Source: a virus (taxonomy: Duplodnaviria; Caudoviricetes). From it: DNA of 46,780 bases. The notes below the pieces were generated by a model that worked only from the letters and a program-made list of their open reading frames with translations, was not told the origin of the DNA and made no database searches. The translations under genes and the position numbers were made by a program. The stretch lies in IMG/VR virus record IMGVR_UViG_3300022173_000087, positions 1-46,780 of that record; one strand, 5' to 3'. Below are positions 16,986 through 24,130 of this stretch, one piece after another (within the stretch, counting starts at the first letter, position 1; the number at the start of each line of letters is the position of its first letter).

Positions 16986-17113
16986 CGAAGCGCCTCCAAT
17001 TCCGCCATGATGCGCCGCTCGAAATCGGCGATGATGTCTGGGATGGACCGCTCAAGATCTGGGTCGGCAGCGATCAAACGCGCCATTTCCGCTATGTATT
17101 TTTCCAAACTCAT
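16982..17113 (-). CDS. Small helical protein, 43 aa, not in ORF track (MSLEKYIAEMARLIAADPDLERSIPDIIADFERRIMAELEALR)
   Basis: ATGA overlaps with both neighbours and fills the gap exactly. Confidence 0.7.
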   Translation of the reverse strand: MSLEKYIAEMARLIAADPDLERSIPDIIADFERRIMAELEALR

Positions 17114-17808
17114 CGGTAGTACCCCTGCATGCTAGGCGAGATGCTGAGGTTGACGTTCTCGGTATCCTGCGCCGCGGCGATGTCCCACGCCTCTTTGGCG
17201 TCGACCTTGCGCATGGCCTCAACCTCGGGCGCGTAGATGCGGCTCAGGCGGTGCGCGAGGCCTGCCACCAGCGCGTCGATCCAGCGGTACGGCACATTGG
17301 GGGTTTCGCCGCCGTACAGGTTGGCATCCTGCATCTGGGTGCAGGCGTAGTAGTTCAGCGTGTAGGGGCCATTGCCGTCGGGCACCGTCCACAAGGTGAT
17401 GGTGGGGTCGATGGTCCGGTCGAACCAGTACGAGGTGGGCTGGCCCTGCGTCTGCTTCTGACCGATCGCCGCATAATCGGTGCGGCTCATGGGCGAGATA
17501 TAGCGGTCGGTCTGGTTCGACGTGCCGTAGTTCAGGCTGATGTAGGCGTCCAAGACCATGACGACCTTGGCGTCGACGTCGTAGGTTTCGGTGCCCTCAA
17601 CCAGCGTCTCGGAGACGAGGGTCACAGTCCAAAGATTTGGCTGGAGATTCGACAGCGTGGACAGCAGGAAGTTGAACTCCCGCTGCGCCGAAAGCATGTG
17701 TTCCTGACGCAGCGACGGCGCGCGAATCCTGCACCGCTCGAAAGCCGACAGCACAAGGCTGCCGTTGCTGGCGGTCGATGAAAACGTATAGGTGCCGGAA
17801 GAGGCCAT
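17110..17808 (-). CDS. Head-tail connector / tail tubular protein A-like
   Basis: MASSGTYTF...SAFERC...FNFLLSTLSNLQPNLWT...GQPTSYWFDR...ALVAGLAHRLS. Confidence 0.7.
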   Translation of the reverse strand: MASSGTYTFSSTASNGSLVLSAFERCRIRAPSLRQEHMLSAQREFNFLLSTLSNLQPNLWTVTLVSETLVEGTETYDVDAKVVMVLDAYISLNYGTSNQTDRYISPMSRTDYAAIGQKQTQGQPTSYWFDRTIDPTITLWTVPDGNGPYTLNYYACTQMQDANLYGGETPNVPYRWIDALVAGLAHRLSRIYAPEVEAMRKVDAKEAWDIAAAQDTENVNLSISPSMQGYYR

Positions 17809-17924
17809 GGCGCGCCCTGCACATCGAAGGCAGGGCGTCTGCCGGGTATTTCGGTAGCGGCGCGCTACGGACGGGGTTGTATCAGAAGTCGGGCGGGGGG
17901 TCTATTGGATCGGCGGCGCGACGG

Positions 17925-18191
17925 TTAACGTTTCATCAGGATGCTGGAGGGCCCGCGCTTCCGGTTTCCGTCCTCGACCTCGCTCAGGATCGCCCGCTGA
18001 AGGCTGGCGCAGCCCATGTGGAGGTCGGCCGCAGCGGTGCCGGTCATGGCGTGGGAATACCCGGACTTCATGCACACCACGATGCCTACGGAATGGAAGG
18101 CGCCGCGCTTGGCCTGGGCCAGCGTTTCCTCCAGCATTGCCACCACGTTCTGCTCGGCCTCGCCGAGGGGCTTGATCAGGATTTCAGACAT
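17925..18191 (-). CDS. Hypothetical protein (88 aa)
   Basis: AGGAG SD; follows terL. Confidence 0.65.
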   Translation of the reverse strand: MSEILIKPLGEAEQNVVAMLEETLAQAKRGAFHSVGIVVCMKSGYSHAMTGTAAADLHMGCASLQRAILSEVEDGNRKRGPSSILMKR

Positions 18192-18206
18192 CGGACTCCT
18201 CCAGTT

Positions 18207-21059
18207 TTAGACGGGATATATGGCCTTCGGCTGCGGCCGGTGCGTCACGGATTGGTTCTCCACGAACGTCGCCTCGTCGTCGGTCTGCGCCATGCCGGTG
18301 TCTCGCAAGAACTTGATGGCCTGGGTCAAACTGTCGGTCAGATCCTTATAGCGACCGTTCGGAAATACGGCAGCCTCGTCGATGACCATCTGTGCCCAAT
18401 CCCTCGACGGCGCATAGACCATGAGTTGGGAAAACGTCGCCTGAACGCCAAGGGCACGGGCGACCTTATCCCCGGATACCGGACGCAGTTCGATCGACCA
18501 GTCCTCGAGCGCGTACCGGTTGCGCAGTTCCTGCGCCGCGGAAATCCCCGACGCCTTGGCCTCGATCAGAAGCTTGTCCACCTTGAAGCGCCTGCAAGTG
18601 TCGCAGACGTGCTCGATCAGGCCCCATGTCGACATGGTGCGCCTGCGGTAGGCATCCTTGCTCTCCCGGGGCTTGTATTCGATCCGGGGACCGCTGAACT
18701 TCAGATGCCGCCGCCAGGCGTGCACCAGCATGATGCGCCGGCGCCCGGTCTCGTCAACGAACACACCCCAGACCGTGAAGCCGGACGGATCATTCTGCTC
18801 TTTGTCGGTGAAGGCGCTGTCGAGGCTGGCGAGCACGTATTCGAACACCGGGAAACGCCCATCAGGGCTGTCCCATAACTGCCACCAGTCTCGCTGGAAT
18901 ATGCCGCCGCCGCGCGGGGCAGGGGCCTGCTGATACTGACCGGCGTAGGCGTAAGGCCCGAGTGTGTGCTTGAGCGCCGCAGTCTCGTCAGGTCCCCAGC
19001 GGCCAGGCCATGCCAGCGTGCCTTCGGCCTCGTCCGGATCGTCCTCATCGTACCGCGGATCGATCCAACCCAGCGCGTTCGATCGCAGCGAGCCGTCGTC
19101 ATTGAACTGATAGTTCGCGTCGTACTCCATCGGGATCTTCAGGTGGCAATAGTCCAGCCCAAGATCGAGGATGACGCCGGATACGTCCTCTTCGTGGACC
19201 CGCTGCATGATGATGACCACAACGGGCTTCTTCGGGTTGTTGTGGCGCGAGGTCATGGATTCCCGGAACCAGCGGACCGTCTCCTTGCGGACCGTGTCGG
19301 ATTCGGCTTCCTTCACGTTGTGGGGATCATCGCAGTTGTGGGTCAGAATGCCGTTGGCGAAGTAGTTGTGGTCCGGTTCTACGCGCACATTAAAGACTGG
19401 TTCTGTTGAGCCGATGCGCTCAACAGAGACAACAGTCGTTTCGTCCACGCCTTCCGAGATTCCATCCCACCATGCATTCCGCCGTGGCACATCCGGCACA
19501 GCGAGATCAGGTTGTCCAAACTCATATCGTCTTTGTCGTAATTGATGTGGTGAACGTGCAGCGCCGTGCCGTGTTCCTTCTCGGTCATCGGGCACAGACG
19601 GCAGCAATATCCATCGCGCTTCCGCACTGCGGCCTTGCGCTTGGGCGTCCAACCGCTCCCGTATTGCTTCGCGTGCTGGCCATGCACATAGCGCCCATTC
19701 CCCGAACCTCGCATTCGTTTGGCGTGCGCTCGCTCCGCACAAGCCTTGCAGCAGAACCTGGATTTGCGATGCCGCTTCACCAAAGGCAGACCGCATTCGC
19801 CGCACATAATTGGTGGCACGCGCTTTTGCGGAAACTTCTCCGCCTTCCAGCGGTCCAACGTGGCGCAGCGCAGCGAACAATGGACCCGTCGTTTTGCCTC
19901 GGCTTGCTTCGCCGTAAACGGCATTCTGCACCGTTTGCACGACAGCGCGACCAAGCCGCCACGCCATCCAGGATTTGCCGCGCCCACGCTCACCGTCGCG
20001 AAGCAGGCATGGCTGCAAAACGGCTTGCCCTTTAACCGCGCCCAATGCGCCGGCGTGCGATATATCGGCTTGGCGCAGACCGAGCACGGCCGCGTCCCAC
20101 GCTCCAGTGCCCGCCGCGTGTCCAGCTTGTTCTTGCAATCCTTGCTGCAGGTCTTGCAGCGGCGCAGGCACGGTGCTCCGCACATCGCGCACGGACGGGA
20201 TGGCGAGCGTTGCGTCTCCTTCGCAGACGCGCGCAGCTTGCGTATAGCCTCGACCGACAATGAAGATTGGGTGATCCGCGGTGCAGACCAATTCCGTTTC
20301 GTCATCGAAGCGGAGTCGAACAAGAGGTCTAGCTGGGTTGGCTTCATACGCGACAATCCGCTGCCAACGAGGGCGTTTTCCAACGTGGTCATACCCTAGA
20401 ACAAACCGTGCTTTTTTGCCATCAACCAATTGAGAAAACGACACTTTCCCCAATTCAGTCTCGGCCATGGTTGAGCCTGAGACGCAGATGATCCGGTCGC
20501 CGCGTTCGCCCGTTCCCACGCCACCAACGGAGGAGGCGAATTTCCACCCCATCTTCGTATTGCTGACCTTCTTTTGGCCCTTGGCGACGACATGCACACG
20601 GTCGCCCCAGAGCATTTGGTATTTCTCGGATGAGATCAGAACGCCAAAGCGGTCGTTGTCGCGCTCCGTGAGGGTCGATGCATACGAGAACGTGACATAG
20701 CGCAAATGCGCCCGGTTCATCGGGCCCCATTCCCACGCCGGCCAGAACACGTCCGTGAGCAATGACTTCATGAAGCCGGGCGGGACGTTCATCAGCAACT
20801 GCATGATCTCGCCGTAGGTCACGGCCTCGAGGTGCTGGCACATAGCCTCGAGCGGCCAATCTGTCTCAAGCGGCGTTTCCGGCTCGAGCACATCCCAGTA
20901 GTATTTTACAAACGCAAAGAGGCCGCACTGCCATTCCCCGTTCTCGTCTCGGAAGCCGCGCGCTGACTGCTTGGCCTTTTCGAGACGGCGGATCCACGCG
21001 TCCTGCGCCTCTTTGAACTTGGAGAGCGCCAGGCGATCGGGGAGGACGGGCTGGTTCAT
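18207..21059 (-). CDS. terL: Terminase large subunit precursor (950 aa; 566 aa after intein splicing)
   Basis: TGATG-coupled start; Walker A NVPPGFMKS; Walker B GDRII|CDDP split by the intein; IIMQRVHEED; YAGQYQQAP; nuclease SLDSAF...KDLTDSLTQA. Confidence 0.93.
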   Translation of the reverse strand: MNQPVLPDRLALSKFKEAQDAWIRRLEKAKQSARGFRDENGEWQCGLFAFVKYYWDVLEPETPLETDWPLEAMCQHLEAVTYGEIMQLLMNVPPGFMKSLLTDVFWPAWEWGPMNRAHLRYVTFSYASTLTERDNDRFGVLISSEKYQMLWGDRVHVVAKGQKKVSNTKMGWKFASSVGGVGTGERGDRIICVSGSTMAETELGKVSFSQLVDGKKARFVLGYDHVGKRPRWQRIVAYEANPARPLVRLRFDDETELVCTADHPIFIVGRGYTQAARVCEGDATLAIPSVRDVRSTVPAPLQDLQQGLQEQAGHAAGTGAWDAAVLGLRQADISHAGALGAVKGQAVLQPCLLRDGERGRGKSWMAWRLGRAVVQTVQNAVYGEASRGKTTGPLFAALRHVGPLEGGEVSAKARATNYVRRMRSAFGEAASQIQVLLQGLCGASARQTNARFGEWALCAWPAREAIRERLDAQAQGRSAEARWILLPSVPDDREGTRHGAARSPHQLRQRRYEFGQPDLAVPDVPRRNAWWDGISEGVDETTVVSVERIGSTEPVFNVRVEPDHNYFANGILTHNCDDPHNVKEAESDTVRKETVRWFRESMTSRHNNPKKPVVVIIMQRVHEEDVSGVILDLGLDYCHLKIPMEYDANYQFNDDGSLRSNALGWIDPRYDEDDPDEAEGTLAWPGRWGPDETAALKHTLGPYAYAGQYQQAPAPRGGGIFQRDWWQLWDSPDGRFPVFEYVLASLDSAFTDKEQNDPSGFTVWGVFVDETGRRRIMLVHAWRRHLKFSGPRIEYKPRESKDAYRRRTMSTWGLIEHVCDTCRRFKVDKLLIEAKASGISAAQELRNRYALEDWSIELRPVSGDKVARALGVQATFSQLMVYAPSRDWAQMVIDEAAVFPNGRYKDLTDSLTQAIKFLRDTGMAQTDDEATFVENQSVTHRPQPKAIYPV
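19335..20486 (-). other. Intein, 384 aa, inserted in the TerL Walker B motif
   Basis: Begins C-VSGST; block B LVCTADHPIF; ends VFNVRVEPDHNYFANGILTHN, followed by +1 Cys. Confidence 0.93.
19379..20392 (-). CDS. Zn-finger-repeat HNH endonuclease nested in the +1 frame of the intein (start uncertain)
   Basis: Four CxxC...C(S/C)xxC repeats; GSGNGRY; VRKRDGYCCRLC...LHVHHINYDKDDMSLDNLISLCRMCHGGMH. Confidence 0.85.
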   Translation of the reverse strand: MTTLENALVGSGLSRMKPTQLDLLFDSASMTKRNWSAPRITQSSLSVEAIRKLRASAKETQRSPSRPCAMCGAPCLRRCKTCSKDCKNKLDTRRALERGTRPCSVCAKPIYRTPAHWARLKGKPFCSHACFATVSVGAANPGWRGGLVALSCKRCRMPFTAKQAEAKRRVHCSLRCATLDRWKAEKFPQKRVPPIMCGECGLPLVKRHRKSRFCCKACAERAHAKRMRGSGNGRYVHGQHAKQYGSGWTPKRKAAVRKRDGYCCRLCPMTEKEHGTALHVHHINYDKDDMSLDNLISLCRMCHGGMHGGMESRKAWTKRLLSLLSASAQQNQSLMCA

Positions 21060-21388
21060 CAGGTGGCCAGTTTTTTCCGGCGGTACCATGTGCGCCGAGA
21101 CATGCCGAGCGCGACCCACGGTTTCATGGCTTCGTGTGTTTTGGAGCGATCCTCAATGCGCACGCCGCCAGGCTGGCGTTTCTCGACGAAGGAGTTTCGG
21201 ACGTCTGCGGCGTAGTACTTGTCGCGTTCAGGCACGCGATTGCCACGCGCAAGCGGGATTTCGATGTGGGTGGCTTGATCGACACTCTGTCGATCAAACT
21301 GCTTGACCGACAAAGGGGTGCAGTGATGGCGCTGGCCGACCAGGACACGATCTTTGCCACAGAGGGGACAGGGATCAGACATTGGCAC
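21059..21388 (-). CDS. Hypothetical DNA-binding protein
   Basis: CPLC...HHC N-terminus; C-terminal KPWVALGMSRRTWYRRKK HTH-like motif; lies between terS and terL. Confidence 0.6.
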   Translation of the reverse strand: MPMSDPCPLCGKDRVLVGQRHHCTPLSVKQFDRQSVDQATHIEIPLARGNRVPERDKYYAADVRNSFVEKRQPGGVRIEDRSKTHEAMKPWVALGMSRRTWYRRKKLAT

Positions 21389-21423
21389 CGCCTTGACACA
21401 ACCGTGTCACAGTCGCGGCACTA

Positions 21424-21885
21424 TTAGTGTTCGACCCCGTTGGCAACCGCCACGCCCTCGATCAGCTTCGGCGTCGAAGGCATCACCAGCCCGATGTCCT
21501 CCGCCCGCCGGCAGAGCTCCGAATAAAGCTGCTGATCGGTCATCTCCGCGTAAGGATCGGCCTTGTGCACCGTGATGCTCTCAAGCCGCGGGCTCTCGTA
21601 GGGCGCAAGCTTCGCCGCGATGTCGGCCGCCACCACGGTGAACTCCATGGCGCGCTTCTCATCCTTGTTTTTCCAGCATTCTTCGGCCATTCCCCACGTC
21701 GCCATCATGGCCTCGGCCAGCACTTCCCGGGCCAGCAATAGCCCCATAGCCTTGCGAGAAGACGCAGAGCGCATGGCCTCCATCGCCAAACGCTCGCGCT
21801 CAATCGTGATCTTGTTCTTCGTGCCCTTGGGCTTGCCGTGAGGGTTCCGGGTCTCGCCCTTTGCGATCGATCCGCGTGGTGCCAT
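21424..21885 (-). CDS. terS: Terminase small subunit
   Basis: GETRNPHGKPKGTKNK N-terminal motif; AAKLAPYESPRL; upstream of terL. Confidence 0.7.
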   Translation of the reverse strand: MAPRGSIAKGETRNPHGKPKGTKNKITIERERLAMEAMRSASSRKAMGLLLAREVLAEAMMATWGMAEECWKNKDEKRAMEFTVVAADIAAKLAPYESPRLESITVHKADPYAEMTDQQLYSELCRRAEDIGLVMPSTPKLIEGVAVANGVEH

Positions 21886-21973
21886 GGCCCAATTTAGCAG
21901 ATTTCAAGCGTTAGGTCAGCCGTGCGAATTCCGGGTCCTTTTTCTTTTCTGGTCGTCGTGGTAGTTGCCAACA

Positions 21974-23083
21974 ATGTTCTACAAGAAATTCGCATTATAT
22001 GCCGCGGCCGGGTTTATCGCCTGCGTGGCTGCGGATGCGTACATTGCGGGCGGGCTTCGCTCCGCATTTGAGGCCGGAGCGAACAGTCACCGCGGCCTCC
22101 GCACTCAACGCGATGTCGTGCTCGAATTGAGGGCGAAGGGGATCGCGGCGGTGCCCTATGTTCCGCCTAATTCGTCGATCACCCATGACCGCTTCCCCGT
22201 GTCAGCAATTGCGGCGAGAAAAACAGTATTTTGCACGGAGGCAAAAGACGTTTGGACGATCTACGACAGCGACAGTCACGGTTTCAATAATCCAGGTGAT
22301 GTGTGGGATAGACCTACGGAAATAATGGCACTCGGCAATTCGTTCGTGCATGGCGCCTGCGTCGAACATGGGCGCGGCATGGTTGACCTGATCCGAAAGG
22401 AAGTGGCAGGGACAATAAATCTCGGACTAGGAGGGAATGGTCCGCTGATGATGTTGGCTGCGCTGCGAGAATACGGCCCGGCCCGTCGGCCGAAAAAAAT
22501 TCTGTGGTTCTTTGTCGAGGGGAATGACCTCGACGCATTAGGCGATGAAGCAAACTCAAATCTTGTTCGATATTTAAGCGATCCAAAATATACGCAAGGT
22601 CTGATCGATACGCAAAGCGTCACGGACCAGGGGTTGATAAAGTTGGTCGACCGTCTCCTCTCTGATCCGGTTCCGGCAGAGGGGCATAATTATCGAAGGA
22701 CGGTCACAGACACATTGCTCCTGCGAAATCTTCGCCAACGTCTCAGGCAGACCGAGGTTAAGCCGCCACCTACTGACCTTCTAGGTCGCGTGCTCGGTAT
22801 GGCAAAATCAGATGCCGCGGCGTGGGGCGGCACTGTCTGCTTCGTGAATCTTCCAACATGGCAGTCATTAAATCAGCCAACGGCGGATCGCGGGGCTACG
22901 CGGAAGACGGTCTTAAATTTAGTTCGTGCCAATGGAATTCCAGCCGTTGATCTGTACCCCGATCTGTTGCGACACGCGACAAGCGGTGAGGCGCTTTTTG
23001 TCTATCCTGGCTCTCACTACAATGCGTCAGGGTATGCTCTGGTTGCTCGCCTCGTTAGCGCGAGCCTCCGGGACTGCAACTGA
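21974..23083 (+). CDS. Membrane-anchored SGNH-hydrolase-fold protein (AlgJ/AlgX-like), moron
   Basis: N-terminal hydrophobic helix; DSHGFNN; LGNSFVHG; NLGLGGNG; EGND; SHYNASGY; visibly more AT-rich than flanks. Confidence 0.75.
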   Translation: MFYKKFALYAAAGFIACVAADAYIAGGLRSAFEAGANSHRGLRTQRDVVLELRAKGIAAVPYVPPNSSITHDRFPVSAIAARKTVFCTEAKDVWTIYDSDSHGFNNPGDVWDRPTEIMALGNSFVHGACVEHGRGMVDLIRKEVAGTINLGLGGNGPLMMLAALREYGPARRPKKILWFFVEGNDLDALGDEANSNLVRYLSDPKYTQGLIDTQSVTDQGLIKLVDRLLSDPVPAEGHNYRRTVTDTLLLRNLRQRLRQTEVKPPPTDLLGRVLGMAKSDAAAWGGTVCFVNLPTWQSLNQPTADRGATRKTVLNLVRANGIPAVDLYPDLLRHATSGEALFVYPGSHYNASGYALVARLVSASLRDCN

Positions 23084-24130
23084 CCCGTATTTGGGCCGGG
23101 CCGCTAAGATTGGGCGCTCGTAGAACCAGTAGAGCGCGGTCGTGAGCGCTGTCAGGATCGACAGATACATGACGAGGTGCATTGGGATAGTCGGCGGCAG
23201 GGCCATCAACACCACCAAGTGGAATAGGTACACGCTGTAAGAAATACGACCGAGGTAGATGAAAAAAGTCACGGTCGCGGCAGAGCGGCGCACCGGGCCT
23301 TCCAGCGTAATAAAGAACGCGATCATCGTTGATCCAACCAGGGCCGCCGCGAGCGGAAAAAGGGCAGGAGCCAGCGTTCCGCCGGCCGGGATCTGCGCGG
23401 TCACGTAGAATGCAAAGGCAAACGACAGAAACATCGCCACGGCGCGTACAAGGGAGGGCCGCGGGGCGTCGGGCCTATGCCGCAGCACAAGCCAGAGCAG
23501 GAAACCGACTGCGATGGAATCGATCCGGAACGCGACTATGCGCCGAATGCTCTGGCCCCAATGGTCGGGGCTGCCTTGGAACATGCGCAGACAGGAGACA
23601 ATGACGATGAACGCGATGGCGAAAGCAACAAGGTCCCGCTCATTGGCGCGGCCCCACACCGTGACTATGCCGATCAGAATGAGCGGAAACACCACATAGA
23701 ACCACTCCTCGACAGCGAGGCTCCACGCCACCGGATAGAAGTCGTGATGGTTCGCCTGGCTGAACAAGTTCTGTACGTAGAACGCATAGCGGATGACGTC
23801 CGCCGGCCGAACGTCAGCGGCCATCACACTGATGCACGCCAGCGCCAGCAGGAACGGCGGGATGGTCCGCATCCAGCGCCGCACCAGAAACGTGCCAATC
23901 ATCCGGTGATTCCCCGGCTGGGCACACATGACGATCTGCGGCGCAAGGACGAATCCGCTCAAGACAAAGAATACCTCGACCGCAATTATAGAAATTGTTT
24001 CGGCCGTGCCGGCAGCGGTGTTCTGATAGATCAGAAAATGTGCGATGGCGACGGAGAAGGCGGCAAGCCCGCGCAGCAGATCGAGGGACGCGATTCGGCG
24101 CTCGGTGGTGTCAGAAAATCCGATAGACAA
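23027..24130 (-). CDS. Acyltransferase-3 family membrane O-acyltransferase (OafA-like)
   Basis: LDLLRGLA; VEVFFVLSGF; RRWMRTIP; WSLAVEEWFY; LGRISYSVYLFH; YWFYERP. Confidence 0.9.
   Translation of the reverse strand: MSIGFSDTTERRIASLDLLRGLAAFSVAIAHFLIYQNTAAGTAETISIIAVEVFFVLSGFVLAPQIVMCAQPGNHRMIGTFLVRRWMRTIPPFLLALACISVMAADVRPADVIRYAFYVQNLFSQANHHDFYPVAWSLAVEEWFYVVFPLILIGIVTVWGRANERDLVAFAIAFIVIVSCLRMFQGSPDHWGQSIRRIVAFRIDSIAVGFLLWLVLRHRPDAPRPSLVRAVAMFLSFAFAFYVTAQIPAGGTLAPALFPLAAALVGSTMIAFFITLEGPVRRSAATVTFFIYLGRISYSVYLFHLVVLMALPPTIPMHLVMYLSILTALTTALYWFYERPILAARPKYGSVAVPEARANEASNQSIP

Follow-up and report, generated by a model that had tools for sequence, protein, structure and literature searches.

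The large terminase gene, terL, of a tailed virus (Duplodnaviria; Caudoviricetes) is interrupted by an intein whose central DNA, read at +1 on the same strand, encodes a zinc-finger HNH protein. The virus is known from the IMG/VR record IMGVR_UViG_3300022173_000087, a linear record of 46,780 nt with an estimated completeness of 71%, which was analysed over its full length (the window). The features of the locus are as follows.

18207..21059, minus strand: terL, large terminase precursor, 950 amino acids (aa) (open reading frame, ORF; PHROG phrog_38, E 8e-50 for the C-extein)
19335..20486, minus strand: class 1 intein in Walker B (GDRII/CDDP), 1152 nt or 384 aa (translation; Pfam PF14890; AlphaFold2 and Foldseek)
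20190..20486, minus strand: N-terminal splicing half, about 100 aa (pLDDT, the AlphaFold2 confidence score, 87-97 per block; best Foldseek matches are inteins)
19449..20189, minus strand: filler in the terL frame, about 247 aa, a shifted read-through of the HNH gene (pLDDT 28-57; stop-free; poorly conserved)
19335..19448, minus strand: C-terminal splicing half, 38 aa (AlphaFold2 model; comparison with relatives)
19379..20395, minus strand: +1 open frame from stop to stop, its coding part probably beginning near 20206-20191 (ORF scan; starts of relatives; codon shuffling)
19739..20191, minus strand: four Cys4 zinc-finger repeats, a predicted DNA-binding arm (motif positions; conservation; weak profile matches)
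19484..19606, minus strand: HNH nuclease domain, CRLC...HVHH...NL..LCRMCH (PHROG profile; invariant motifs; AlphaFold2)
20216..20221, minus strand: AAGGAG, a Shine-Dalgarno (SD)-like motif formed by the EGD codons of the intein (presumed role, judged from relatives that start here)

The terL intein and its second reading frame

The terL frame is open without a stop from the ATG at 21059 to 18207 and extends back to a GTG at 21119. It comprises an N-extein of 191 aa with a Walker A-like motif (PPGFMKS, at 20783), the intein, and a C-extein of 375 aa. A sequence-only reading of the window had described terL as a single ORF with a 384-aa intein splitting Walker B, and coordinates, sequence and the match to Pfam Intein_splicing (PF14890, E 1.9e-9) all agree with this description. 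The intein runs from CVSGST to THN between the flanks GERGDRII and CDDPHN, and its splicing residues are all canonical: Cys1, TADH in block B (20282-20271), VFNVRV in block F (19397-19380), the closing His-Asn and the +1 Cys. Across 19 aligned inteins, Cys1, the Thr and His, the final His-Asn and the +1 Cys are invariant. AlphaFold2 assigns the splicing halves a pLDDT of about 90-97, Foldseek matches the modelled halves best to solved inteins (E 1e-6), and the two halves are thus predicted to form a HINT fold.

The middle of the intein frame had been read as filler, and rightly so, since the model there falls to a pLDDT of 28-57 and the terL-frame filler has no Pfam nuclease match and no modelled fold. 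Hence, the element is not a canonical intein with an in-frame endonuclease. Nor is it a fractured gene, in which the host gene is split into two ORFs, because its terL is one ORF; 13 relatives are of the fractured kind. The net charges of the window's splicing halves (N-terminal +1, C-terminal -4) differ from those of split relatives, which range from -6 to -19 and from 0 to +7, respectively (P=0.0001, kinship ignored). The lack of this acidic and basic pairing fits splicing in cis. No second terminase was seen in the window, an incomplete record; if there is none, terL is apparently the only terminase and splicing in cis would be needed.

At +1, the reading frame stays open from 20395 to 19382, flanked by TAG codons at 20398-20396 and 19381-19379, and counts 337 codons from an ATG at 20392. 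Its product was proposed to carry four Cys4 repeats and an intact HNH, which is what we find, with CxxC...CxxxC units at 20191-20135 (irregular), 20086-20003, 19939-19865 and 19804-19739, and with HVHH at 19558, NLISLC at 19513 and CRMCH at 19498. The cysteines of fingers 2 and 4 as well as the VHH, CxxC and CH of the HNH domain are invariant in all 19 aligned relatives, and finger 3 is nearly so. The fingers give weak profile matches to MYM, FCS and L24e fingers. With respect to the nuclease domain, the match to PHROG phrog_1271 reaches E 1.7e-21, while the Pfam HNH match (E 0.001) stays under the Pfam cutoff. The AlphaFold2 model of the +1 protein has a mean pLDDT of 84.5, with at least 90 in the nuclease part, and Foldseek returns weak matches to the HNH nucleases McrA and Cap5 (best E 0.0045).

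Relatives at the insertion site

A search of viral contigs with the +1 protein alone gave no match, and a protein database search returned only three distant HNH proteins and no close relative; yet at the DNA level there are 19. These were gathered through a terL search and three junction-pattern scans (15, 48 and 14 matches). The resulting census holds 33 distinct elements at the exact site, the window included, after removal of duplicates, of L056 (the same sequence as the window; L numbers denote individual sequences), of chance pattern matches, and of L045, L054, L073, L077, L081, L091 and L099 as truncated or unresolved. The HNH alignment, shuffle and tree do not include L047, whose HNH is frameshifted, and the splicing tree and charge test do not include L062, whose N-terminal half is partial.

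Twenty of the 33 elements carry the window's HNH family. Eleven of them, including the window, are contiguous with the HNH at +1 (nested) and have no stop in the terL frame, and nine are split; in none of the 20 is the HNH in frame. Homologues with an alternative-frame HNH, for which the sequence-only reading had suggested a search, thus exist. The remaining 13 elements are nine mini-inteins, two split inteins in which a gene that we take, by eye from its motif, to be GIY-YIG-like replaces the HNH (L021 2564-3663, L022 2933-4186), and two split inteins with a remnant only. L046 and L075 are natural split terL inteins from which the nuclease is almost wholly deleted. Two cyanobacterial contigs, L091 and L099, retain only the nuclease 3′ end, the C-terminal intein half and the C-extein, beside WD40-like repeat genes, and look like truncated prophage remnants.

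The nested +1 layout also occurs in three cultured phages at sites two to three codons away, namely Gordonia phage Clown, Synechococcus phage S-EIVl and Brucella phage Tb. In Clown (L100 926-3685) and S-EIVl (L101 1031-3571) the +1-frame zinc-finger HNH gene is unannotated, which illustrates that gene callers overlook such genes.

Several observations bear on mobility. The nearest terL relatives (61-65% extein identity) are intein-free, and intein presence changes at least six times on a FastTree tree of 117 exteins, in which L169, with an intein at a site nearby, was mislabelled as empty. In L063 and L068 the extein DNA is 98-99.5% identical and the nested inteins are almost unalignable. Removal of the intein restores a conserved host motif, and the empty allele L214 reads GTGERGDRVICDDPHNVK. 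A first sample, in which none of 83 intein-free alleles had the +1 Cys, prompted the idea that this residue is brought in by the intein; this was rejected, because 85 of 99 targeted pattern matches (68 of them distinct) are empty alleles that bear the Cys. In L169, upstream of position 2501, a nested intein with a +1 HNH occupies a different Walker B position (GGN/CIIVDDP), and the extein groups with that of the empty L117.

Selection on the two frames

To evaluate the overlap, the synonymous codons of the HNH core (236 codons in the window) were shuffled and the stops arising in the terL frame were counted. The window has none against 5.2 expected (P=0.0005), and the same is true of all 11 nested elements (0 against 5.0-15.3 expected, each P<=0.003). 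As a control, in seven of the eight split elements tested the stops, at 28-42, are as numerous as expected; the eighth, L050, has 2 against 7.3 expected (P=0.006). Furthermore, with the frames aligned separately, the HNH frame outscores the filler in every one of the 55 pairs (median 120 versus 23.5 bits), and in the pair L008/L010 the ratio of nonsynonymous to synonymous substitution rates (dN/dS) is 0.13 in the HNH frame versus 1.4 in the terL frame. The expectation of purifying selection on the HNH frame of homologues is thereby confirmed: across the family, the nuclease frame is under purifying selection and stop codons have been removed from the terL frame. It follows that the latter is maintained as an open frame without conservation of its sequence, what is conserved being the nuclease. 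This means that about 750 nt of a packaging gene can be kept readable in two frames, which lets a selfish nuclease travel inside an intein.

The signal does not extend over the whole +1 frame. The upstream stretch, codons 47-93, has no stops against 0.7 expected (P=0.45, not significant), and the first 65 or so of the 337 codons overlap intein blocks A-B. Hence, the real nuclease gene probably has about 270 codons, and the first 65 or so are probably non-coding. Of the proposed 337-codon ORF, the open frame and its TAG bounds hold; coding over the entire length is unsupported.

Start codon and expression of the nuclease

Seven of the 11 nested elements have an ATG or TTG at a distance of 4-11 codons ahead of the first finger, preceded by an SD-like motif that is made of intein codons and has an anti-SD energy of <= -4.7, a value reached by 23% of 120 internal NTG codons used for comparison. 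In four of the seven (L020, L063, L068 and L069) the +1 frame extends no further than 5-11 codons upstream of the first finger, which fixes the position of the start there. In the window, what follows AAGGAG in the +1 frame is ACG (spacing 0 nt) and TCG (spacing 9 nt), and no ATG, GTG or TTG is found. Since a start is missing at the family position, expression of the window's own nuclease is uncertain.

The ATG codons at 20392, 20347 and 20305, which had been put forward as candidate starts, receive no support from conservation: selection on an N-terminal extension from any of them is not significant by codon shuffling, and relatives start nearer the first finger. The best of the three is ATG 20347, which has a weak SD and occupies the same position, intein codon 46-47, in L002 and L060. 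A hairpin bringing AAGGAG to an ATG at 20185 was considered and is unsupported (z 0.27).

A probable homing nuclease inside an intein predicted to splice, and the alternatives

In our view it is very probable that the terL intein splices in cis and that the +1 frame encodes a zinc-finger HNH nuclease, likely with its own internal start in the family and likely a homing endonuclease. From established intein chemistry, the precursor would splice in cis, restoring Walker B and discarding the filler of about 247 aa. In this family the nuclease would be translated from an internal start, with a ribosome-binding site supplied by intein codons 4-11 codons before the first finger. By analogy with homing in general, it would nick or cut intein-free terL near the GD-x-x-x-CDDP codons during co-infection, and repair would then copy the whole element into the cut allele. 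The window's copy may give a low-level product from an upstream ATG (20347 being the best) or a near-cognate codon, or may have been silenced recently.

Several findings weigh against this picture. Neither the window nor L002 and L004 have a start codon near the first finger, and the ATG that L060 has there lacks a good SD; the SD-like motif, being made of conserved intein codons, is partly a by-product of them. The window's first finger is shortened and irregular in the alignment of relatives, and Foldseek gave the +1 protein no HNH match at E<=0.001. One sequencing run contained a fraction of 0.06 of the words and covers none of the intein. Finally, synonymous divergence is near saturation in every pair that includes the window, such that the selection signal belongs to the family rather than to the window's own branch, and ongoing selection on its copy is not demonstrated.

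Some of these points would equally be expected if the layout were real but the nuclease no longer translated here, the intein being an enlarged mini-intein and the +1 frame a recent relic. TCG and ACG stand where relatives start, the upstream open frame is not significant, the first finger is irregular, and decay is known in the family, as in the frameshifted HNH of L047 and in L093, which resembles a deletion product. Against a relic, about 270 codons are still open and every invariant Cys and His is retained. In L002 and L004, likewise without a proximal start, the nucleases (about 40% identity) are nonetheless intact. This speaks for the use of another start over three recent losses, and the ATG at intein codon 46-47 is common to the window, L002 and L060. 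We thus regard a relic as unlikely, if worth keeping in mind. The missing start would also be explained by a programmed +1 frameshift that makes the nuclease as a fusion of the TerL N-terminal part, the N-terminal intein half and the HNH, and in the window, L002 and L004 the +1 frame is indeed open for 65-70 codons upstream. This is improbable given the start and SD at a conserved place in seven of the 11 nested elements and the upstream closure of the +1 frame in L020, L063, L068 and L069, at 5-11 codons from the first finger; by eye there is no shared slippery site, and the folding of the window's junction is unremarkable (z 0.27).

A different question is whether the HNH protein serves homing at all. 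HNH proteins of the HK97 gp74 type act as packaging cofactors of terminase, and the window's HNH is encoded within terL itself. A packaging role was raised for the brucellaphage HNH in the respective paper (PMC4422536), where HNH proteins adjoining terminases are named as known packaging factors. We give a cofactor very little credence, as nine mini-intein and more than 80 intein-free terL relatives have no HNH at the site, the HNH moves between near-identical terL genes (L063/L068), and the long zinc-finger arm suits the reading of a long target. Lastly, the window is a single metagenomic contig, such that an ordinary in-frame HNH intein could have been put out of frame by two compensating sequencing or assembly indels. 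The sequence-only reading had itself named this as a refutation, and it can practically be set aside: ten other divergent elements and the three cultured phages show the same +1 phase, no in-frame form exists among the 20, and faults of this kind would not rid the terL frame of stops.

Relation to known systems

The sequence-only reading held the arrangement to be an undescribed third architecture of inteins. The contiguous intein that hides a separate +1 HNH gene stands, given the stop purge and the conservation of the HNH frame, but its novelty does not. An out-of-frame HNH in the terminase inteins of brucellaphages has been in print since 2015 (PMC4422536), and preprints of 2025-26 describe the layout; the window adds another case of the known out-of-frame nested endonuclease inteins. 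In the GenBank entry of Brucella phage Tb (KC556897; Perisivirus; Tb_07/Tb_08) the nested coding sequence is annotated at offset +1, and its HNH matches the profile of the window's family at E 3e-34. Tb resembles the window in its related and open terL, its Walker B intein and its same-strand +1 HNH of the same zinc-finger family. It differs in that the intein sits three codons upstream (D/CVIIDDP versus DRII/CDDP) and in that the nuclease, at 228 aa, has fewer fingers and a clear AAGGAG-GTG start, which the window lacks. Tests of selection or splicing were not found in the accessible text of the Tb paper.

Gosselin, Arsenault and Gogarten (10.1101/2025.01.02.630785) describe endonuclease VII-like nucleases in frame 3 as well as antisense nucleases in phage inteins. 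Their actinobacteriophage inteins are like the window's in being contiguous, in having a disordered in-frame middle and an endonuclease in another frame, in that their host genes include terL and in showing evidence of continued transfer. However, their same-strand type is the endonuclease VII-like one in frame 3 and their HNH type is listed as in-frame, whereas the window's HNH lies at +1. Gordonia phage Clown, with a 385-aa intein, belongs to their set and carries the window's HNH family at +1. A LAGLIDADG ORF at +2 in a cyanobacterial dnaX intein was analysed with per-frame dN/dS by Phillips et al. (10.64898/2026.09.14.751524), who credit Gorbalenya 1998. As in the window's family, the endonuclease is nested on the same strand and under purifying selection in its own frame, and full, mini and empty alleles coexist; the nested ORF has its own SD. 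The dnaX case differs in its cellular host gene, in its LAGLIDADG nuclease and in that split forms are unreported.

In fractured genes (Dassa et al. 2009, PMC2677866) the C-terminal intein half takes its start from the 3′ end of the endonuclease gene, with which it overlaps. At the window's site, nine relatives are fractured genes with the window's HNH family, whereas the window's own terL is unbroken. The nucleases of Dassa et al. are Vsr-like or GIY-YIG, in contrast to the HNH of this family, and a stop-free nested state is absent from the steps of their model as far as accessible. The ShiLan domain, a hidden HNH out of frame in phage methylases (PMC11855218), likewise leaves the host frame open and gives a weak sequence match (E 2e-6), but involves no intein and a non-essential host gene.

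Nested, split and mini states

The nested, split, mini and empty states found at one site with one nuclease family hint at interconversion, and their coexistence may be new. No paper turned up that deals with this precise site, or that treats nested and split forms of a single HNH family side by side, in a literature search whose scope excluded subscription journals and the supplements of bioRxiv preprints. In the window, the first codon of the C-terminal splicing half, a GTG, overlaps the conserved Trp codon of the nuclease. In split relatives the C-terminal half starts at this codon with ATG or TTG (11 of 11 HNH-type or remnant split forms examined), and in nine of 11 nested forms the position reads GTG, CTG or ATG. 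The conserved Trp codon would thus already provide the C-terminal half with a start, and a single stop after the N-terminal half would split terL. The split form would be freed from dual coding, and conversion would be easiest in AT-rich genomes; the GC content of the genes is 0.48-0.65 in nested and 0.38-0.46, plus one case of 0.63, in split HNH elements (P=0.002, kinship ignored).

The window's nuclease is sister to that of the split element L050 (support 98/96, unrooted tree), whose few terL-frame stops look as if it had departed from the nested state recently. A single split clade is rejected (approximately unbiased test, p-AU 0.006; the grouping was named after a first quick tree). L093, which shares 96% extein identity with an L047-type split element and retains the first codons of the nuclease, looks in its sequence like a deletion product of such an element. 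Against a passage from nested to split, the trees are unrooted and the splicing halves of L050 group with another split intein (SH-aLRT 89), such that nuclease exchange explains the kinship of the window and L050 equally well. That nested inteins and fractured genes are interconvertible, the nested state being the direct precursor of natural split inteins, is therefore a tentative and somewhat doubtful proposal. As all four states occur at one site, the sequence of events by which split inteins arose becomes testable there, and the family is a source of new split inteins of natural origin and of new zinc-finger HNH nucleases.

Neighbouring genes and further insertions

The PHROG annotation places an integrase, Erf/RecE-like and virion genes in the window. 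The position of one further gene suggests a role next to terL:

21424..21885, minus strand: possible small terminase gene, 153 aa (position only; no PHROG match)

The PHROG scan, which covered 61 ORFs, picked out neither a portal nor a major capsid gene (noted for 17110-21885); either such genes have diverged or they fall outside this incomplete record. No sigma-70 promoter or terminator was found inside 19200-21200, and antisense ORFs of 209-226 codons have no Pfam match. Just upstream of the terminase genes, at 21965-24130, an O-acetyltransferase gene (minus strand, PHROG E 3e-34) converges with a plus-strand gene for 372 aa without a PHROG match, possibly a surface-modification moron.

Further insertions were seen in terL genes of relatives. 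In L019 (2501-3931) a second one, about 970 nt long, lies close to residue 100 and upstream of the Walker B intein, and in L006 the C-terminal part contains an insertion of about 730 nt. The terL intein of Escherichia phage BUCT618 (L102, OM735461; 522-2891), at a G/CIIIDDP site, contains an unannotated antisense ORF of 229 codons, which by eye resembles a NUMOD4/HNH endonuclease.

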